A DNA stretch of 15,734 nt from UHGV virus genome UHGV-0194232. One strand, given 5' to 3'. Positions 1,005 through 12,032 of this stretch are shown here, one piece after another. The stretch comes from a virus. Made by a program: the position numbers and the translations under genes. Under the pieces are notes generated by a model. The model worked only from the letters and a program-made list of their open reading frames with translations, made no database searches and was not told the origin of the DNA. Position 1 is the stretch's first letter, and each line of letters opens with the position of its first letter.

Positions 1005-3416
1005 TCAGTCCGTCAGCTGCGGACAGTCATAAAACGTTTCTGATACTGATGCCGGGGACGGAAACTTCGTCATAAACGTCGACCGGCTTCCTGTCACCCG
1101 GTGGCAGTTTTTGAACAACGCGCTCAGGTTACAGCCTGCCGGGAATTTCTCTGTGAAAATATCGTTAATATCCATCTCCAGCGAATTACAGCCTGTAAAT
1201 GTGGCCATCAGGGAAATTGCGCTGGTTTGCGGAGCAATCAGGCCAGTCGGGATCCGGCGCAGCGCCACACACCCCTGAAACATTTTTTCCGGGTCGTTGA
1301 TCCTGCTTCCGGCAAACAACACCTCCTGAATTTCCTCCAGCGAAGCGCAGGACGCAAACAACATCCAGGTTCTGGTCAGACTGTTGCATCCGGCAAGCAT
1401 ATCGTCCGGCAGACGGCGAAGGGCTCTGCACCCCTTGAATGTCCCGACCATCGCTTTCAGCGAACGACACCCAGAAAGCATCCCGCCCCCGATACTCTCC
1501 AGCGACAGACAACCATCAAAAAGGTAATTGCACTGTTCGAGACGTACTGCATCCGCCAGCAGATTTTTCCCTGCTTTAACCAGATTTGTACACCCGCAAA
1601 ATACCGTCATACACGACGTCAGGTTTCTGGCGTTCATGAAAACAGCCTCTCCCACCGAAACCAGTGATGTACAGTTCTCAAAACACCGGTCAATCACCTT
1701 GCATTCCGGCAAACCGGCTAACAGGCGATCAGGTATATACTGCAACCCTGTACAACCACGAAACGTCATGGATAAGTTGCCAATACGATTTTTTATTCCG
1801 TCAAAATATCCCGCAGGCAACAGAGTGAGCCCACTGCATGACTCAAATGTCCGGTTAAAGGTTACCTGTAGCCGGTTTTCCCCTTCCCCCGGCAACAGTT
1901 CCGGCAGTTCCGACAGGGACTGACAGTTATAAAACGCCTCCGAAAGCGATGTTATTCTGCGGGTGGGGATACGCGGTGCCACGGCAAGTCGTTTGCAGCC
2001 ATAGAACGCCGATGTCAGACTTTCCAGATTTTCTGCCGGCTCCAGTAATCCCGCCGGCACTTCCGTCAGGGCTGCGCAGCCATAAAACAACTGAGAAAAA
2101 TTTGTCGCCATGCGGGCGGACAAAAACATCCCCTCCGGCACCACCGTCAGCCGGGTACAGCCATAAAACACGGCGTAAAACGACGTCACTGACGGGCAGC
2201 CGGCAAACAGATTTTCCGGCAAATCCGTCAGCGCAGTACAGCCACGAAACGCACGTGCAAACGTGGTGACCTTTTCCAGAGTGTCAAACGCCCCTGCATG
2301 AATTTTTCGCAGCGCATTCTGCGTGTTGGCAAATCCTTCCATACTGGTGCGGGTGCCACTGATTTCGATAATCTCAAGCAATGAACAGGTTACCGGTGAC
2401 GTACTTCGGTAGAACATCAGGCTTTCACAGTTCCTGACCGTCAGCGTCACTTCCTCCCCTGACGTCAGGGGGCGGGTGGCCATGACTGAATTCCCTGAAA
2501 TCGTGTAATCCCTGCCTGCCACACCATCGCCGTAATCAATGGTAAAATCGGTGTCTCTGCTGTCATCGATTAAGAACAGCGGTCTGCTCACACTGTCAAT
2601 GCGCACCACAACACGGGCTACCGCCACCACTTTTACAGCCAGCGTGGCAGCCACCCCGTTTGACGTCATGACACTCACTGTTGTGGCTCCGCACTGCCTG
2701 GCGGTCAGGGTGATGACATCGCCATCAACCTGTATATCAGCCACACGCTCGTCTGCCAGGTGGACAGTGAAGGAGCGGTCTTCGGCGATTAGTGGCAATA
2801 TCGTCACCTGTACGGACGCCGTTTCACCGGGTGCCAGTTGCACACTGTCCGGCGACAACAGGATCTGTGATGGCATGATTTTATTTTTCAGTTTTTCCGT
2901 CGCCGTCACATAACCATAACCATATCCGTTCCCCCGGCAGTTTCCATAAACGTGAATACTGAACCAGCTGCGCAGATTTTTGGCCCGTAGTACGGCATGT
3001 TTCAAATCCTGGTGGTCGCTCATCAGAACCGGCAGATCCTTCTGCTCCACATTCAGCCGGAAGGTATAAGGATCTCCCGGTGGCGTCTGCTCATACCACT
3101 CCACAATCTGCGACCGGAACGGACTGTCTGCCAGGGATTCATTCAGTGCGGCTTTTGTTCCCCTGTGACGATGGATATAGGCAGCACGTTTTATCGCTGC
3201 CCTTTTTTCCGCCTCTGTCCAGTGCTCATTCCAGGTATCCACTGACATTTCCCAGGCCAGCCATGGCAGCAATTCCGTCGGACATAAATCGGGATTTTTG
3301 ACATAGCGGATCAGACAGACCGCGATTTCCGCCAGCATATCACCGGCGGTACTGTCCACCACCCGCTCTGCCCGGCTGGCGCTGACCGGTAGTATGCTTC
3401 TGATTTTGTCATTCAT
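1005..3416 (-). CDS. I: Baseplate wedge protein, P2 gpI-like N-terminal domain fused to a C-terminal Ig-like domain plus BspA-type leucine-rich repeats (803 aa)
   Basis: ORF 1005..3416, ATG at 3416 overlapping the gpJ stop (ATGAATGA). The N-terminal ~175 aa align with recalled P2 gpI (NPDLCPTELLPWLAWEMSVDTW vs NPDTCPANLLPWLAWAFSVDRW; PPGDPYTFRL vs DPPGTFRL). Residues ~180-260 look like a bacterial Ig-like fold (LAPGETASVQVTILP...TVSVMTSNGVAATLAVKV). Residues ~340-803 carry about 20 repeats of an F-x-G-C-x-x-L-x-x-hP motif (AFRGCTALTDLP, VFYGCTRLTVVP, LFYGCAALTEVP, AFYGCKRLAVAP, AFYNCQSLSELP, TFRGCTGLQYIP ...). Confidence 0.85.
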   Translation of the reverse strand: MNDKIRSILPVSASRAERVVDSTAGDMLAEIAVCLIRYVKNPDLCPTELLPWLAWEMSVDTWNEHWTEAEKRAAIKRAAYIHRHRGTKAALNESLADSPFRSQIVEWYEQTPPGDPYTFRLNVEQKDLPVLMSDHQDLKHAVLRAKNLRSWFSIHVYGNCRGNGYGYGYVTATEKLKNKIMPSQILLSPDSVQLAPGETASVQVTILPLIAEDRSFTVHLADERVADIQVDGDVITLTARQCGATTVSVMTSNGVAATLAVKVVAVARVVVRIDSVSRPLFLIDDSRDTDFTIDYGDGVAGRDYTISGNSVMATRPLTSGEEVTLTVRNCESLMFYRSTSPVTCSLLEIIEISGTRTSMEGFANTQNALRKIHAGAFDTLEKVTTFARAFRGCTALTDLPENLFAGCPSVTSFYAVFYGCTRLTVVPEGMFLSARMATNFSQLFYGCAALTEVPAGLLEPAENLESLTSAFYGCKRLAVAPRIPTRRITSLSEAFYNCQSLSELPELLPGEGENRLQVTFNRTFESCSGLTLLPAGYFDGIKNRIGNLSMTFRGCTGLQYIPDRLLAGLPECKVIDRCFENCTSLVSVGEAVFMNARNLTSCMTVFCGCTNLVKAGKNLLADAVRLEQCNYLFDGCLSLESIGGGMLSGCRSLKAMVGTFKGCRALRRLPDDMLAGCNSLTRTWMLFASCASLEEIQEVLFAGSRINDPEKMFQGCVALRRIPTGLIAPQTSAISLMATFTGCNSLEMDINDIFTEKFPAGCNLSALFKNCHRVTGSRSTFMTKFPSPASVSETFYDCPQLTD

Positions 3417-4323
3417 CGGTTGTCTCCACCTTGTTCAGTGTGACTGAGCGACACCATGGAGCCTGCCCCATCACCGGAACAATATCACTGGCCGGCGATT
3501 TCAGTGCCACCGTAATCACCCCCGTCTGATGCAGGGCTCCGTCCATACCTGAGCAGGACGCCACAGAGCCAATCCGGTGCACACTGTCAGTGTAGGCCTG
3601 CAGCGCCTGGCGGGCATTTTTCATCACCAGTTCACCATCCAGCCCGTAGGGAATATGGATATCCGCCACCACATCGTAGGGAATAATTTCTGCCGCACGG
3701 ACGCTGACAAAATCCGTCAGGGGTCGAATTTCATCATCATTGACTGACGCCGCCACCTTATCCAGCAGGGGTTGTGATGCCGTACCATTTCCTGTACGCG
3801 CTAACACATAAAGAAAAACACGCCCTTCCTGTGAATGCGTTTCCGGTCCGTAGGCTTTCACATCCAGCACATCAGGATCGGCACTCTGTGCAAAATAGTG
3901 GTATGCGTTTCTCGCGCCTGCGGTGCTGAGTCGTGCCCATGACAACTGAATACGTTCGCGAAAAGCGTCATCATCTTCATACACCGCAGGCGTGGGCGGA
4001 ATAGTGCTGTCATCTGCCGGGGTAATCACCAGACGTTGCACCTGAAAATTCGCACCAATCTGATCCAGGTCGTTCCTCCGGGCGCTCGCAAGCAATACAC
4101 CCCGGACAGCATCATTGACCTGCTGGCGCATCAGCGCCACCCGAAAAGCCAGTGTCTCTGCCCATTTATACGCCGGATCGGATTCCACCAGGGCCGAAAA
4201 CAACGTGTCCAGCTCCTGATACTTCGCCACTATCTGAGTGACCAGCACAGCTGTGTCCGGCACTTCCACCGCATCCGGTACCGGTATCGCGGACAGATCA
4301 ATGATTGCCTGAGACGTTGCCAA
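3409..4323 (-). CDS. J: Baseplate assembly protein, P2 gpJ-like (304 aa)
   Basis: ORF 3409..4323 aligns over its full length with recalled P2 gpJ (IIDLSAIPVPD vs IIDLNQLPAPD; ITPADDSTIPPTPAV identical block). It starts with TTG at 4323, preceded by GAGGAG at about 7-8 nt; no in-frame ATG is nearby. Confidence 0.9.
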   Translation of the reverse strand: MATSQAIIDLSAIPVPDAVEVPDTAVLVTQIVAKYQELDTLFSALVESDPAYKWAETLAFRVALMRQQVNDAVRGVLLASARRNDLDQIGANFQVQRLVITPADDSTIPPTPAVYEDDDAFRERIQLSWARLSTAGARNAYHYFAQSADPDVLDVKAYGPETHSQEGRVFLYVLARTGNGTASQPLLDKVAASVNDDEIRPLTDFVSVRAAEIIPYDVVADIHIPYGLDGELVMKNARQALQAYTDSVHRIGSVASCSGMDGALHQTGVITVALKSPASDIVPVMGQAPWCRSVTLNKVETTDE

Positions 4324-4654
4324 TTTTTATCTCCTCGAGTCGAATCGTTTCCTGTGTCTCGTTGTTCACCCCAACAAGCGTCAGCCAGGCGCTTCCTTCT
4401 CCTGTCCATGTCACCTCCACCCGCCGGAGGGTCAGGCGGGGTTCCCAGCGCTCAAGGGCGGTTGCCGTTTCACGGACAATCCTCACCCGCGTAAAATCAT
4501 CCTGCGGGTTATCAAGCAGACTGAACAACCTGCTGCCGTATTCCCTGAGAAGTACCCGGCTGCCGACCGGTGTTGATAAAATATCGGTGACGGACTGACG
4601 CAGGTGTTCGTTACCGTGCAGATATCTGCCAGTGGCGGAATCAATACCAATCAT
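4298..4654 (-). CDS. W: Baseplate protein, P2 gpW-like (GPW/gp25 family), 118 aa
   Basis: ORF 4298..4693 contains ILSTPVGSRVLLREYGSRLFSLLD...ERWEPRLTL, matching recalled P2 gpW (ILRTPVGSRVMRRDYGSLLASMID...LKWEPRVTL). ATG at 4654 gives a P2-like length. An alternative GTG at 4693 overlaps the gpV stop (GTGA) but would place the hairpin/T9 tract inside the coding sequence. Confidence 0.75.
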   Translation of the reverse strand: MIGIDSATGRYLHGNEHLRQSVTDILSTPVGSRVLLREYGSRLFSLLDNPQDDFTRVRIVRETATALERWEPRLTLRRVEVTWTGEGSAWLTLVGVNNETQETIRLEEIKIGNVSGNH

Positions 4655-4663
4655 GAAATTTTT

Positions 4664-4690
4664 CCGAAAAAAAAACGCCGGTGCGGCGTT
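4664..4690 (-). terminator. Candidate weak intrinsic terminator or attenuator between gpV and gpW
   Basis: On the minus strand: a short GC hairpin (arms cgccg/cggcg at 4676-4680 and 4684-4688, 3-nt loop, extendable by two A:U pairs) directly followed by a run of 9 U (plus-strand A run 4667-4675). It sits immediately after the gpV stop codon. Confidence 0.4.
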
Positions 4691-5313
4691 CACATTTCCT
4701 GGTTAGGTTTACGGGTGGTTCCCCCGCTGTCGCCAGGGTGATCATGAGTATTATAAATTTCGCGAATTTTACTCATGCTACCGGTTTTGTCGGTGATCTC
4801 CTGTGAGGCACCGATATTGCCCAGAACCTGCGTATCGGCATTAATCTTCGTTTTTCCCTGCACAGTCAGGGTATCCGTGATTTCCACCGGACCGTCAAGC
4901 GTTCCCCTGCCGGTGATTTTATAGCTGCCGCCTTCAGCCAGCGTGATGGACAGGGCATTAGCCTGGCGGTCGTAACGGATCTCCGTTCCGGTATCAAACA
5001 AAATAACATGCTCGTGTTCACTGCCCGCCGGTACCGGAATCGCGTCAATGTTGGCCCCCGGATACACCCGACCATTACGCAGATCGCCCGCCTCCGATAT
5101 CACTGTGACCGCATCTCCTGGTGCCGGGTAATTACTGACCTGCATGTAACGCCCGGACTGCACCTGAATCCATGGCAACGGCGGCGAAAGCACATCTCCG
5201 ATATCCACCCGGACCATCACCGGGCTACCCGGGATCACCTCTTCCACCACGCCGCGACGGACCATGTCCGCCACCCTGCGGCGTAACTCTGCCACTTCAT
5301 CCGCCAGACTCAT
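4690..5313 (-). CDS. V: Baseplate spike / assembly protein, P2 gpV-like (207 aa)
   Basis: C-terminal HDHPGDSGGTTRKP matches recalled P2 gpV HKHPGDSGGTTGSP, and the N-terminal region aligns with the gpV start. ORF track extends to 5607, but the start was chosen at ATG 5313 (MSLADEVAELRRRVADMV) on homology and a GGAGGG Shine-Dalgarno upstream; the longer version would overlap the upstream gene by ~300 nt. Confidence 0.85.
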   Translation of the reverse strand: MSLADEVAELRRRVADMVRRGVVEEVIPGSPVMVRVDIGDVLSPPLPWIQVQSGRYMQVSNYPAPGDAVTVISEAGDLRNGRVYPGANIDAIPVPAGSEHEHVILFDTGTEIRYDRQANALSITLAEGGSYKITGRGTLDGPVEITDTLTVQGKTKINADTQVLGNIGASQEITDKTGSMSKIREIYNTHDHPGDSGGTTRKPNQEM

Positions 5314-7382: not shown

Positions 7383-8411
7383 TTATTTCACCTGAACCAC
7401 CACAAACGCGTCAGGATCCGGCAACACCATCAACGGCGCAGACTGCGTCATGGTATATTCGCAACCAGGATCACCCACCTCCAGCCAGTGTTTTGGATAA
7501 CGAATTGCAGAGGTGATCCCTTCACTCAGCGCCTGATTATCCTGAATGGCACCATAACAACGGACGCCTTCCGCCTGAGTATTCCCCAGAATCAGTGTAC
7601 CTTCCGGCAGATAACGCTGTTCATCCCCGTTTTCGTCAACATACGTTGTCTTCGCCACAACAATGGCCAGATCACCGTAATACCCCTTAAAAGAGACCAC
7701 TGAGCCCAGATCTTTCAGCGCGGTTTCCAGTTCCGATTTTGAACCACGACGGGTATCCAGTTTTTCACGGAAAAGCTTAAAGCCATTCAGCATACGCCAG
7801 ACCGTGCCATCCATAATCGCGATATTGATGGTCCCTGAGGCAAAATCGCAGTACGCATCCAGATCGTGCGTTGGATCAAAGGTGTCAGCATTCTGCTGTG
7901 ACCATTCGCGTCCGCCAGCCTGCGTAATGTTATTGACGGCAGAGCGCCCAAAATCCACTTCCACCGTCTCAAACTGTTCCCCGCTCATGGTGTACTTCCC
8001 CTGCAGAACGGCACTGACCGCCTGCATTTCTTCCACCTGCACAATCGCCTGCTCTTCCTGCTTCAGGTTGTCAGTCAGAATACGCAGGCGGCGGTAGGCC
8101 GGGTCATTAAGACGGGCCGGATCTTCCCCCGGCAGACGTTCCACTGCCTGCTGATAATCAAAGCGGTGTTTTGGTTTTACATAACCGGGACGTAACACGC
8201 GGGTTTCACCACCACGGCTGCGCAGCACTTTGCCTGACACCACCGGAGACACATACGCCGCAACCGGTGTTTTGCCGGTAATTTTATCCAGCATGACTTC
8301 CTGAGTATGGAAAGTGATCGTGCGACGAAAGAACAGCTCCAGAAACAGCGCACGAAATTTCACTTTCTGCTCGGTGTACCCGAGTAACTGACGCGTGGTA
8401 AATAACCCCAT
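7383..8411 (-). CDS. E: Major capsid protein, lambda gpE-like (342 aa)
   Basis: Full-length collinear similarity to recalled lambda gpE, including identical blocks AIVQVEEMQAVSAVL, LRPGYVKPKH-type motif, DTRRGSKSELETA and TQSAPLM. Length 342 vs 341 aa in lambda. Confidence 0.95.
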   Translation of the reverse strand: MGLFTTRQLLGYTEQKVKFRALFLELFFRRTITFHTQEVMLDKITGKTPVAAYVSPVVSGKVLRSRGGETRVLRPGYVKPKHRFDYQQAVERLPGEDPARLNDPAYRRLRILTDNLKQEEQAIVQVEEMQAVSAVLQGKYTMSGEQFETVEVDFGRSAVNNITQAGGREWSQQNADTFDPTHDLDAYCDFASGTINIAIMDGTVWRMLNGFKLFREKLDTRRGSKSELETALKDLGSVVSFKGYYGDLAIVVAKTTYVDENGDEQRYLPEGTLILGNTQAEGVRCYGAIQDNQALSEGITSAIRYPKHWLEVGDPGCEYTMTQSAPLMVLPDPDAFVVVQVK

Positions 8412-8480: not shown

Positions 8481-8816
8481 TCAGGCGTGGCTGATGGCAC
8501 TTCCCACAAATGCGTTGGCTTTTTTCACCGCATCCACAGAGTCAGGCCAGACCAGCGACTCAGTGGCAAACGTACCGCTTTTGTAGTACGTCAGTGTGGG
8601 TTCTGTTCCGGCAAGCGCCAGAGCCAACACGCCCACTGCCGTTCCGGCTTTCTGACCATCCCATGCCACCAGTTTGCCGGTGGCGTCATCCAGCATCAGT
8701 GGCGTCAGTGCAGGCGTGGCAGCACTGATACCACTGGTGGCTGTTGCGGTATGCGCCGGATCGCTTCCGGCAAAAATATGCACATCCGCGCGCTTTTCTG
8801 TGGTTGTTTTAATCAT
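8481..8816 (-). CDS. D: Head decoration protein, lambda gpD-like (111 aa)
   Basis: [22 protein letters not shown] and YKSGTF motifs are collinear with recalled lambda gpD. AGGAGA Shine-Dalgarno 8 nt upstream of ATG 8816. Confidence 0.95.
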
Positions 8817-8854: not shown

Positions 8855-9565
8855 TTACGGCATACTCATCAGCAGATCTTCTTCTCCGTGCCCGGCAGTT
8901 CCGCCTCCGGAAACCGCACTGGCAGCATGCTGTGCCATAAAGCGATCAAAAAGTGTTTCCTGTGACGGTTGCGATGCCGCCGGTGCGGCTGCCAGCAACG
9001 TTTTCGCCTGCGCCACCGTCATTCCCGGTTGTTCTGCCAGTGCCTGTGCAAGTTGCTTGCGCCCTTTCGCCTCCGGCAGCGCCATAATCTGATCGCCGAC
9101 ACTTGGAGAACCGGCAACCGGTGCCGCCGCCAGTAACGTTTTTGCCTGGTCAACGGTCATTCCCGGCTGTTCAGCCAGCGCCTGCGCGAGTTGTTCACGC
9201 CCTTTAGCTTCCGGCAACGCCATAATCTGATCGCCTGTGCCTGCAGCACCGGCAGCAGGGGCTGCCGCCAGAAACGCTTTCGCCTGCTCCACCGTCATCC
9301 CCGGTTGACCTGCCAGCATCTGTGCCAGTTGCTCACGCCCCTTTGCTTCCGGCAGCGCCATAATCTGATCACCCGTGCTGTCAGTACCGGCAACCGGCGC
9401 AGCTGCAAGCAACGTTTTCGCCTGCTCAACCGTCATTCCAGGCTGACCTGCCAGCATTTGCGCCAGTTGCTCGCGCCCTTTCGCCTCCTGACAATTCAGG
9501 ATCCCCATCACGCGCTGATTTTCCTGGGCCACCGCTTCAGCAACGGTGAGATTTTTAACAGTCAT
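8855..9565 (-). CDS. Nu3-like scaffolding protein, in-frame nested within the 3' part of C (236 aa)
   Basis: Internal ATG at 9565 (MTVKNLTVAEAV...) is preceded by a strong AAGGAG Shine-Dalgarno at about 5 nt. By analogy with lambda Nu3, which is translated in-frame from inside C. The region contains the MGILNC and GMTV motifs seen in the lambda C/Nu3 C-terminus. Confidence 0.5.
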   Translation of the reverse strand: MTVKNLTVAEAVAQENQRVMGILNCQEAKGREQLAQMLAGQPGMTVEQAKTLLAAAPVAGTDSTGDQIMALPEAKGREQLAQMLAGQPGMTVEQAKAFLAAAPAAGAAGTGDQIMALPEAKGREQLAQALAEQPGMTVDQAKTLLAAAPVAGSPSVGDQIMALPEAKGRKQLAQALAEQPGMTVAQAKTLLAAAPAASQPSQETLFDRFMAQHAASAVSGGGTAGHGEEDLLMSMP

Positions 9566-10471
9566 TGCATTCTCCTTCGTAACAGAGTCATTCAGTGCAG
9601 AAACCATCACTTCAACGGCATCTGCAGCATTAATCAGTTGATCAGCCAGGCCTGCATCAATGCCTGCCTGACCGTCATAAACGGCAGCCTCAGTATTCAT
9701 CACCGCCTCTGAACTCAGCCCCGTATAAAGCGCCACTTTGTCGACAAACATCCGGCGGGCCTCATCAATACGGCGCTGAAAATCTGCACGCACACCTGCC
9801 GGCAATGCCTGAATACTGTTGCCGTCAACCTTGTGCTGCCCGGAGTAAATCAGCGTGATATCCACCCCTTCCTGTGCCAGTTGTTTCTCGTAACTGGTGT
9901 GCGCCATCATCACACCAATCGAACCAATTTTTGCCGTCTGCGTGACCAGCCGACGCGTACAGGCTGCCGCCAGCAACATGGCGGCTGAACAGGCCATATC
10001 ATTACACAGCGCCCACACGGGCTTCTGTTCCCGCAGGCGGTAAATCATGTCAGCACAGTCAAACGCCCCGGCAGCCTGACCGCCCGGGCTGTCGATATCC
10101 AGCAAAATGCCGCGCACATCCGGATCATTCACCGCCATCTGAAGACGGGCCGTCAGGCCGTCATAGCCTGTCATGCCGGAGTAAGGGCGCAGGGTACCCA
10201 GTTTATGCACCAGCGTGCCGCTCACCGGCAGAATGGCGATGCCATTCTTCACCTGGTAACTCTTTGCCGGACGCTGACCGCCCGCCATATAGTCAGTCAC
10301 AGCCAGTTGCATACCATCAGCATCAAGCTGAACAGCCTGCTGAGGAACGGCAAGGCTGCCGGCCCCCATCTCTTTACCCAGCGCGCAAAAGAAAACCCGC
10401 GCATAGGCGGGTTCCAGTAAAAGCGGCTCATTAAATGCCATGGCGGCAATATGCGATAAATTACGACGCAT
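8855..10471 (-). CDS. C: Prohead protease / minor capsid protein, lambda gpC-like (S49 peptidase family), 538 aa with an expanded repeat-containing C-terminus
   Basis: N-terminal ~300 aa align with recalled lambda gpC (HIAAMAFNEPLLLEPAYARVFFCAL vs HIASMAFNEPLMLEPAYARVFFCAL; VTQTAKIGSIGVMMAH; ITLIYSGQHKVDGN). The ATG at 10471 overlaps the portal stop. It is about 100 aa longer than lambda C because of the tandem repeats. Confidence 0.9.
   Translation of the reverse strand: MRRNLSHIAAMAFNEPLLLEPAYARVFFCALGKEMGAGSLAVPQQAVQLDADGMQLAVTDYMAGGQRPAKSYQVKNGIAILPVSGTLVHKLGTLRPYSGMTGYDGLTARLQMAVNDPDVRGILLDIDSPGGQAAGAFDCADMIYRLREQKPVWALCNDMACSAAMLLAAACTRRLVTQTAKIGSIGVMMAHTSYEKQLAQEGVDITLIYSGQHKVDGNSIQALPAGVRADFQRRIDEARRMFVDKVALYTGLSSEAVMNTEAAVYDGQAGIDAGLADQLINAADAVEVMVSALNDSVTKENAMTVKNLTVAEAVAQENQRVMGILNCQEAKGREQLAQMLAGQPGMTVEQAKTLLAAAPVAGTDSTGDQIMALPEAKGREQLAQMLAGQPGMTVEQAKAFLAAAPAAGAAGTGDQIMALPEAKGREQLAQALAEQPGMTVDQAKTLLAAAPVAGSPSVGDQIMALPEAKGRKQLAQALAEQPGMTVAQAKTLLAAAPAASQPSQETLFDRFMAQHAASAVSGGGTAGHGEEDLLMSMP
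8978..9487 (-). repeat. In-frame tandem repeat, 138-bp unit (46 aa), about 3.7 copies, inside the scaffold domain of C/Nu3
   Basis: Protein unit ALPEAKGREQLAQ(M/A)LA(G/E)QPGMTV(E/D/A)QAK(T/A)(L/F)LAAAP(V/A)AG...GDQIM occurs four times. At DNA level the landmark gccataatctgatc recurs at 9083, 9221 and 9359 (period 138). Copies are about 80% identical by eye. Lambda C has a single copy of the corresponding segment. Confidence 0.85.
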
Positions 10472-12032
10472 CGCCTTTTCCTCCCGTTGTCTGTCGGATC
10501 TGCTGCTGAAACGTATCCTTTATCCAGATGGGGCGGGGAAGACCGGCAGCCTGTCGCTCCTGGCTTTCACGCAGTTGCTGGCGGAAAATCTCCTGATAGT
10601 CATCTCCCATCAGGGCCAGCTCCTTCTCGTATGTACTCAGGCCACCTTCAATACGCATCACCGCCTCCTGCACCTCCTTAAGGCCATCAATCGCCATGCG
10701 GCCGGCACCAATCCACTCGGCACGACACCACCCGGAACGGGCCTCCCAGAATGAGAAACGGGATTTCGGCGGGCGGATCACACCGCGAATAAGGGCTTCC
10801 TCCAGCCAGCAGGCAAACATCTGTGATGCCAGACGGCTGGCCACAAATTTTCGTTTCCCCATAAAATACCGCCACGACTCATTGGCGGATGCCCTGGCAC
10901 TGGAATAACTGACCTGTGAATAATCACGGGAAAGTTGCTCATAGGACACGCCCAGTCCGGCAGCAATGTAACGTAACAGCGCCTTTTCCAGTTCAGAGAA
11001 ACCATTATCCGCATTCTGTGCTGTCTGCAGATTCAGTGAATCCCCCGGATAAAGATGCGGAATACGAACCCCACCCATCTTTACCGTATTGGTGGCGTAA
11101 TAGCGCGCATACCCTTTCATGATGGTGTTCAGGGGATTTTTACCGCCATCTCCCACCCCGGCGATATATTCAAATGCTTTTTCCGAATCCAGTGTGGATT
11201 CAATCGTCGCGGCATACATCGCCCGCACCACCGCCGACTGCAGTTGCGTGGCCTGTAGTGTGTCGAGCATCTTGAGGCGCTCCATCACGGAATAAAACTG
11301 GTTGGCCCCGCGCGTCTGTCCGTCCTCCTGCGGCTGAAACACATGGATCATTCCCGGTCGCCCGGAGGGCAGCGTCGCCGCAATCCGTGTCCAGTTGCTG
11401 ACACCGTAGCCAGGCCAGTCATCGTCCTGAACATGATAAGCCATCGCCTTTCCGTGACGGTTGATTTCCACTCCGGCACGCATAAAACGATCGCCGATGC
11501 CATAACCGGGCGTGCTGACGCGCTTCGGACTGATGGTCTTGAATTTTGTTCTGAATAATGACGTGGATTCCGTATCCCATACGGGCTGGACAAAAATTTC
11601 ACCGTTAAAAGTATGGACCCCCACCCCTTCACGAATAAATTCGGTAAACGAGCGACGCCCTTCCACATCCATCGAACCAAATACCGGATCGCAATATTCC
11701 ATCCACGCCGCCTCCACATCTTCAATAAAGGCATGCGAATCAGCTTCTGACATCCCCAGCCAGCGCCAGTTGGGTCGGTAGCTCAGGCGAAACATGTGAC
11801 CGACGATATGGTCTTTATGAATTTCCACAGCATTTGCGGCAATACCGTTGTTACGGACCAGATCGTCCGCACGGGCGTTACCCAGCTGAATGGAAGGTAA
11901 GAGCGCCACATCAGCACTTTCCGGTGCTGGCAACCATTCAGCCAGTTGCCCACCGAATCCGGAGCCGCCGCCGGAATATCCCATACTCTGCCGCAAAGGT
12001 TGCCCGTGAAGATCCACCAGTCCCCCGCTCAC
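10461..12032 (-). CDS. B: Portal protein, lambda gpB-like (523 aa)
   Basis: Collinear with recalled lambda gpB (GGGSGFGGQL, GNARADDLVRNNG, FRTKFKTISPKR, DGQTRGAN, LRYIAAGLGVSYEQLSR, GRMAIDGLKEVQEAVM). Starts with GTG at 12032, with AGGAG about 8 nt upstream; overlaps the W stop. Confidence 0.95.
   Translation of the reverse strand: MSGGLVDLHGQPLRQSMGYSGGGSGFGGQLAEWLPAPESADVALLPSIQLGNARADDLVRNNGIAANAVEIHKDHIVGHMFRLSYRPNWRWLGMSEADSHAFIEDVEAAWMEYCDPVFGSMDVEGRRSFTEFIREGVGVHTFNGEIFVQPVWDTESTSLFRTKFKTISPKRVSTPGYGIGDRFMRAGVEINRHGKAMAYHVQDDDWPGYGVSNWTRIAATLPSGRPGMIHVFQPQEDGQTRGANQFYSVMERLKMLDTLQATQLQSAVVRAMYAATIESTLDSEKAFEYIAGVGDGGKNPLNTIMKGYARYYATNTVKMGGVRIPHLYPGDSLNLQTAQNADNGFSELEKALLRYIAAGLGVSYEQLSRDYSQVSYSSARASANESWRYFMGKRKFVASRLASQMFACWLEEALIRGVIRPPKSRFSFWEARSGWCRAEWIGAGRMAIDGLKEVQEAVMRIEGGLSTYEKELALMGDDYQEIFRQQLRESQERQAAGLPRPIWIKDTFQQQIRQTTGGKGDAS

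Follow-up and report, generated by a model that had tools for sequence, protein, structure and literature searches.

Scaffold proteins are among the least understood components of phage head assembly. In phage lambda, a protease-scaffold gene (gpC/gpNu3) lies between the portal gene B and the D/E genes and holds the scaffold as an in-frame nested gene. Lambda Nu3 shares its C-terminus with gpC, is degraded by this protease, and binds both gpE and itself in two-hybrid assays (PMC3224144). Our literature and database searches found neither a structure nor a mapped contact surface for lambda Nu3. At the sequence level, lambda carries a single copy of a conserved module (ENSRIMGILNCEEAHGREEQARVLAETPGMTVKTARRILAAAP), preceded by a low-complexity spacer of about 40 aa and followed by a tail of the type LDRLM...DLLNTPV. 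A second described system is the head operon of phage 21 (GenBank M81255), where the annotation gives gene 6 as a nested ORF that has a ribosome-binding site of its own, and places in it the repeat regions 'Tri1 box', 'Tri box' and 'Tri3 box', marked as 'function unknown; putative'. The nested scaffolding protein was retained in the complete phage 21 genome of 2022 (OL657228). A full-text literature search found no open-access paper on these repeats, and the sole prior art that we located is the feature table of M81255. Functional analogues, namely P22 gp8, phi29 gp7 and herpesvirus UL26/UL26.5, touch the coat protein through helical or helix-turn-helix elements, and the herpesvirus pair is also a nested protease/scaffold gene pair (PMC11565965). 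None of them shows a detectable similarity in sequence or fold to the locus described below. To our knowledge, each of these scaffolds uses a single coat-binding element, with no tandem array.

The window analysed here, a whole stretch of 15,734 nucleotides from virus genome UHGV-0194232, belongs to a lambda-like E. coli prophage. It contains a gene that joins a gpC-like S49 prohead protease to a scaffold domain, in which the module occurs four times (Table 1). The kind of repeat is already known, since it was first annotated in 1993 in phage 21, and what is new is a four-copy member with one unit more; the Tri box annotation predates the first-pass annotation of this DNA, which missed it. The protein shows a Pfam match to Peptidase_S49 (PF01343) at aa 146-290 (E 1.7e-33), a PHROGs match over the full protein to phrog_53 (head maturation protease, 6e-219), and a match of its protease to SppA structures in a sequence search of the PDB (1.5e-16). 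Four stretches of its C-terminal part match phrog_8399 ('head scaffolding protein'). In a full-length alignment with lambda gpC, phage 21 gp5 and their relatives, residues S162, H213 and K214 are invariant, and S162 aligns with the serine of the lambda NCSAG motif, which we take to be the lambda catalytic Ser166. The neighbouring genes encode a lambda-type portal and homologues of gpD and gpE, and the window also encodes Nu1, FI and a head-tail attachment protein (Phage_attach). The S49 domain, the neighbours and the full-length alignment together identify the gene as a gpC/Nu3 homologue, as had been proposed from the letters of the sequence. It is otherwise an ordinary phage structural gene, common in enterobacterial prophages and named in RefSeq only 'S49 family peptidase'. 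E. coli 503025 carries a prophage that is 98.9% identical to the window over this gene. Several weak Pfam matches of the repeat region (T2SSK, Bac_DNA_binding, DUF732 and others) were rejected as noise, because their scores are summed across the four repeats and no single stretch passes the threshold alone.

Table 1. Coordinates of the features discussed in the text (window positions; protein spans refer to the 538-aa protein)
Feature	Position	Strand	Span (aa)	Remarks
Tail_P2_I fused to Ig-like and LRR regions	1005-3416	-		P2-type baseplate
Baseplate_J	3409-4323	-		P2-type baseplate
gpW/gp25	4298-4693	-		P2-type baseplate
Major capsid protein, gpE type	7383-8411	-		Phage_cap_E, 7e-65
Decoration protein, gpD type	8481-8816	-		HDPD, 2e-23
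gpC-like S49 prohead protease fused to scaffold domain	8855-10471	-		538 aa, 56 kDa; ORF and translation, Pfam, PHROGs
Nested in-frame scaffold ORF (Nu3 / phage 21 gp6 equivalent)	8855-9565	-		Predicted product of 236 aa, 23,963 Da, pI 4.9
Unrepeated C-terminal tail	8858-8956	-	506-538	Conserved LFDRFM helix and terminal DLLMSMP; aligns with lambda ALDRLM...DLLNTPV and with phage 21
Repeat unit 4	8957-9094	-	460-505	DQIMALPEAKGRKQLAQALAEQPGMTVAQAKTLLAAAPAASQPSQE
Repeat unit 3	9095-9232	-	414-459	DQIMALPEAKGREQLAQALAEQPGMTVDQAKTLLAAAPVAGSPSVG
Repeat unit 2	9233-9370	-	368-413	DQIMALPEAKGREQLAQMLAGQPGMTVEQAKAFLAAAPAAGAAGTG
Repeat unit 1	9371-9508	-	322-367	MGILNCQEAKGREQLAQMLAGQPGMTVEQAKTLLAAAPVAGTDSTG; first helix extends upstream into ENQRVMGIL
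Shine-Dalgarno AAGGAG	9572-9577	-		6 nt upstream of the internal ATG at 9565-9563
Portal protein	10461-12032	-		Phage_portal_2, 9e-95

The repeat array and the putative nested start

Tandem Repeats Finder detected a single strong tandem array in the window, at 8980-9488, with a period of 138, 3.7 copies, 80% matches, no indels and a score of 598. The protein register resolves it into four in-frame units of 138 bp (46 aa) that extend over 8957-9508, and the unit profile also matches the 538-aa protein four times. The first-pass annotation had described such a four-fold, in-frame amplification of a 46-aa module, with limits (8978-9487) that fall about 20 bases short at each end of those given by the protein register. 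The expected periodicity of 138 bp is present, since the self-identity of the repeat region reaches 0.746 at a shift of 138 bases and 0.714 at 276, as compared to a mean of 0.27 and a maximum of 0.384 at the remaining lags, and never exceeded 0.424 in 1000 codon shuffles. The tandem repeat is thus real and well above chance. In pairwise comparisons, the four units are 65-78% identical in DNA and 65-85% in protein, and they follow the consensus DQIMALPEAKGREQLAQxLAxQPGMTVxQAKTLLAAAP plus a linker of 8 aa made of Ala, Gly, Ser, Thr and Pro.

Phage 21 gp5/gp6 resembles the locus in its gene position, its S49 domain (about 74% nucleotide and 68% amino-acid identity) and its tandem modules of about 46 aa followed by an FxxFM...LMxMP tail, whereas it has three units instead of four, and these are more diverged from each other (52-61% identity between cores, against 81-94% in the window). 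A one-to-one correspondence between the units of both phages was not found: all four units of the window are closest to Tri1 (65-81%), followed by Tri2 (58-65%) and Tri3 (52-61%), and therefore the array is not simply a Tri1-Tri2-Tri3 with one unit added. Within this sub-lineage, the cores of all the units are 81-97% identical to each other, and the array was rebuilt or homogenised in it. In the case of lambda, the single module stands against the four copies here, as was noticed at the outset, and the low-complexity spacer that precedes it is missing in the window.

AlphaFold2 models of the full protein (mean pLDDT 63, pTM 0.41) and of the 236-aa product (mean pLDDT 71, pTM 0.27) agree in building each unit from a short helix (DQIMAL) and two further helices of 8-10 residues linked by a GQPGMT loop, with block-mean pLDDT values of about 70-83 for the units and from below 50 to about 65 for the linkers. 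In the model of the 236-aa product, the tail forms helices at H202-213 and H229-232. The low pTM is what would be expected of beads that move independently, and we infer from these models that each unit would be a small helical bead on flexible linkers. A search of the PDB by sequence found no relative of the scaffold part, with one chance-level match to an ATP synthase delta subunit. Foldseek found no match at or below 0.001 in the PDB (best E 0.59), and its best match in BFVD (E 0.36) was itself a prohead protease; similarity to the coat-binding helix-turn-helix of P22 or phi29 was not found in either database, which is a weak negative given the moderate confidence of the model and the very small size of the domains.

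The nested ORF would start at an internal ATG preceded by a Shine-Dalgarno motif (minus-strand sequence around the start: ACGAAGGAGAATGCAATG). The AAGGAG, the ATG at 9565 and the length of 236 aa are as they had been described in the first-pass annotation, and the use of this ATG as a start is plausible, the product being deduced from the sequence. In the alignment, no more than two residues separate it from the annotated start of phage 21 gene 6, which also has its own Shine-Dalgarno. A purine run of this type and the ATG are kept in phage 21 (GGAGG), in prophages of E. coli (L004), Trabulsiella (L007) and Providencia (L008), and in the L085 (CAGGAG) and L087 (CAGGAGG) relatives, where the residues encoded at the start differ (KENAM, RGGTM, TGGTM, KEDKM, QENTM and QEETM for phage 21, L004, L007, L008, L085 and L087, respectively). 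A Shine-Dalgarno-like motif followed by ATG also occurs in all 79 scorable IMG/VR relatives (79/79). The preservation of these two elements across differing codons supports a real start. The predicted scaffold, which would begin with MTVKNLT and weigh 23,832 Da once the initiator Met is lost, would consist of repeats to about 80%.

In lambda, the position homologous to the start in the window is M309, where an AGGAGG lies 4 nt from the ATG and the product would be of 131 aa, whereas Nu3 is annotated in J02459 from M239 (201 aa), with a poor Shine-Dalgarno. PHROGs contains scaffold families of both 131 and 201 positions. The comparison favours M309 of lambda, and not the M239 of J02459, as the homologue of the nested start in this clade.

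Copy number, age of the array and selection

Among the species-representative genomes, a single module is found in lambda and in relatives from Enterobacter, Kluyvera, Klebsiella, Serratia, Vibrio, Photobacterium, Pseudomonas, Marinobacter and others, and three modules in the phage 21-type prophages of E. coli, Shigella, E. albertii, Trabulsiella and Providencia. A search of 1.84 billion representative proteins with the unit profile gave 410 proteins at E <= 0.001; nearly all of the 150 matches listed are single-copy, with the module near the C-terminus of longer proteins (about 400-550 aa). One copy is the ancestral and usual state, with three in the phage 21-type enterobacterial lineage and four in this sub-lineage. 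Among the closest relatives, the commonest state is three copies and not one, a point that the first-pass annotation missed. In the best 120 protein clusters, there are 74 with three copies and 41 with four, together with two clusters with two, two with five and one with six; in the best 80 IMG/VR loci, the three-copy form accounts for 64, with 13 loci of four copies, two of two and one of five. The comparison of related prophages that had been proposed at the start thus revealed a range of 2-6 copies among the enterobacterial relatives.

The three-copy homologues, from prophages of Salmonella, Shigella, E. albertii, Trabulsiella and Providencia, are much more frequent than any other multi-copy form. 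They have the same architecture as the window (for example P0063, with 507 aa and found in 178 contigs), and differ from it in having one unit fewer and in units that are more diverged from each other. Four-copy proteins are also present in Citrobacter, Salmonella, E. albertii and E. marmotae, and the four-copy clusters among the best 120 include some with 826, 470 and 153 member sequences. A few proteins with unusual arrangements were observed as well: P0044 (657 aa) repeats a block of about 150 aa that takes in the end of the protease domain, P0041 (610 aa) bears the database name 'baseplate assembly protein V', and in P0207 and P0175 a lambda gpC is joined to a tape-measure fragment or to tail protein L. 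These four are probably artefacts of assembly or gene calling.

A different arrangement occurs in a prophage of Pseudomonas sp. GM18 (L076, 4892-5563), where the S49 protease has only 287 aa and is followed by a separate, very acidic ORF of 224 aa, which ends with a degenerate module (RERARCAAIFGSRYAARNPVLAANLAFGTSMTRQQALNVLRDTP) and a WDRAM tail and precedes the gpD and gpE homologues. The module is discernible by eye, with a domain E of 36, that is, without statistical support. This ORF looks like an unfused version of the scaffold. A tblastn association test, in which the module seemed confined to loci with gpE-type capsids, was dropped as insensitive, because it had missed this degenerate module: the supposedly 'module-less' Pseudomonas locus has gpD and gpE together with it.

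Several relatives carry near-perfect repeats. In the 584-aa protein of STEC313, which has five units, two are 96% identical in DNA; in P0040, units 1 and 2 do not differ in protein sequence; and L098 contains five units, three of them identical in protein, while L102, of the same lineage, has two. Such repeats, together with the presence of 2, 5 or 6 copies in close relatives, indicate that the arrays expand and contract, presumably through unequal recombination.

The perfect repeats of L098 and units 2 and 3 of L087 (96% identical) also lend some ground to the idea that arrays of this kind might be miscounted by assemblers, and that the one in the window was created by the assembly or arose very recently by slippage, and has no biological significance. 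We give this explanation practically no credit. The units of the window differ at 22-35% of their bases, so that reads cannot be collapsed or expanded across them, and as many as 105 of the 5,426 complete E. coli genomes contain the 711-bp scaffold region, colinear, of equal length and 86-99% identical, so that the array is not a product of assembly. In the prophage L085, about 87% identical to the window, each unit of the window is closest to the unit at the same position (83-88%), and the four-unit array is therefore older than the split between both. The units thus retain their orthology, one by one, between prophages of only 86-88% identity. The first-pass annotation had argued from the divergence of the copies against a recent duplication or an artefact, and this view is borne out by the array in the complete genomes and by the synonymous divergence between copies: in the 31-aa core (EAKGRE...LAAAP), comparisons between units gave dS values of 0.6-1.6, with dN of 0.03-0.12 and dN/dS of 0.02-0.17. 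The four-copy state has been retained across lineages with dS of about 0.6, and is long-lived despite occasional gain or loss of units.

The third codon position accounts for most of the differences between units (for example, 8/7/23 and 6/7/24 at the first, second and third positions), and this excess points to selection on the protein. A function of the repeats at the DNA level was rejected on these grounds and because CII-type (TTGYN6TTGY), promoter-like and terminator-like sites, which were looked for within the repeats, were not found. In the comparison of orthologues with L085, dN/dS was 0.08 in the cores, as compared to 0.09 in the protease domain and 0.30 in the linkers. Purifying selection on each 31-aa core thus equals that on the protease domain. 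The linkers, which vary freely between units, drift and evolve three to four times faster than the cores. These values bear on the possibility that the array is a tolerated filler, a disordered and soon-degraded region where duplications are neutral, as would be in keeping with the variable number of copies among relatives and with the title of Medina et al. 2011 (cited in PMC11922011), which describes lambda gpNu3 as intrinsically disordered. Neutral duplications fit poorly with the constraint on the cores, seen between copies as well as between orthologues, and with the four-copy state kept across such diverged lineages, and we regard this explanation as very improbable. In the same comparison with L085, the dS of the repeat cores (0.64) was about 2.5 times that of the protease domain of the same gene (0.25; window 8957-9508 for the repeats). 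This excess could come from gene conversion between units, from a mosaic exchange involving the scaffold segment, or from selection for recoding that stabilises the array.

Possible role of the modules in head assembly

The reading that we consider probable is that the four Nu3-type modules of this gpC-like S49 protease, old and selected, constitute a multivalent assembly element of the nested scaffold, whose copies bear on valency and not on shell geometry. The process would start with the internal Shine-Dalgarno and ATG giving rise to the 236-aa scaffold, whereas the scaffold domain of the full-length protein would place the protease inside the procapsid. The array would offer several equivalent contact sites per chain, to which either the gpE-type coat or further scaffold chains would bind, and after assembly the gpC-like protease would degrade the scaffold, as in lambda. 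What can still be recognised of the scaffold in distant relatives is the module, together with the short FDRFM-type tail, and the module therefore probably serves as a contact, either with the gpE-type coat or between scaffolds. An alternative candidate for the coat-binding site is the unrepeated tail (FDRFM...LLMSMP), as the cases of P2 gpO and the herpesvirus scaffolds would suggest. In any case, four copies may not be required, since relatives with two copies exist.

Additional copies would change the valency of the scaffold and leave the geometry of the shell unaltered. The opposite possibility, that the copy number acts as a ruler, with more units producing a longer scaffold and a larger or differently shaped procapsid, follows a suggestion of the first-pass annotation, for which we found no support. 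Scaffold proteins affect shell size in other systems, such as Sid in P2/P4 and 80alpha/SaPI1, and the scaffold is longer here (236 aa) than in lambda (131-201 aa), but neither genome sizes nor coat gene lengths follow the number of copies: phage 21, with three, has a genome of 42.9 kb, and lambda, with one, of 48.5 kb; the coat gene measures 1029 bp in four- and five-copy relatives alike, and its product has 342 aa here and 341 aa in lambda. Moreover, close relatives with 2, 4 and 5 copies are near-identical in their unit, linker and tail sequences. A ruler thus seems to us highly unlikely.

A further possibility, compatible with a contact role, is that the units are processing cassettes, with docking or cleavage sites for the S49 protease that would release peptides of about 5 kDa able to leave the shell. 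Each unit ends in AAAP followed by small residues, resembling the preference of SppA-type (S49) peptidases for small residues. Among ten profile matches sampled with Pfam, the module accompanies an S49 head-protease domain in seven, the other three giving no Pfam match, and the degradation of lambda Nu3 by gpC (PMC3224144) goes in the same direction. Nevertheless, the Pseudomonas relative has its module in a scaffold ORF separate from the protease, a cleavage site alone would not account for a near-invariant helical core of 31 aa, and we know of no described cleavage sites of gpC. We rate the cassettes as an unlikely explanation, though a less remote one than the ruler or the filler.

Beyond the multivalent element proposed for this locus, a more general and tentative scenario, which we rather doubt, is that all lambda-type (gpE-family) head scaffolds contact the coat, or bridge to each other, through this module, and that repeated changes in enterobacterial prophages have taken its valency from 1 to as many as 6. 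The copy number would then be a dial for the scaffold-to-coat stoichiometry and for the kinetics of assembly, and the strong synonymous divergence between units whose proteins are nearly identical would be due in part to selection against recombinational collapse. The natural series of 1, 2, 3, 4, 5 and 6 copies of the module on otherwise similar heads could be used to probe both its binding partner and the effect of valency.

Tail genes and lambda-like contigs

Downstream of the lambda-type head genes, the window contains P2-type baseplate genes (1005-4693, minus strand; Table 1). The close four-copy relatives L002 and L085 have instead tail genes of the lambda-type siphovirus kind, such as gpU, and in the case of L002 also G, T, the tape measure and L. 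One head module is thus found joined to two different tail types.

A last observation concerns a group of sequences that the contig scan could not distinguish from lambda (L016, L017, L019-L021 and L023-L026), with equal match length, about 54% identity to the query and a single module. They lie on short contigs from assemblies labelled as Neobacillus, Akkermansia (a MAG), Chromatium, Kitasatospora, Shewanella, Pseudomonas, Oceanobacillus and Leeuwenhoekiella, with a coverage of about 1 to 10 where the contig name states it, and they look like contamination with lambda control DNA.
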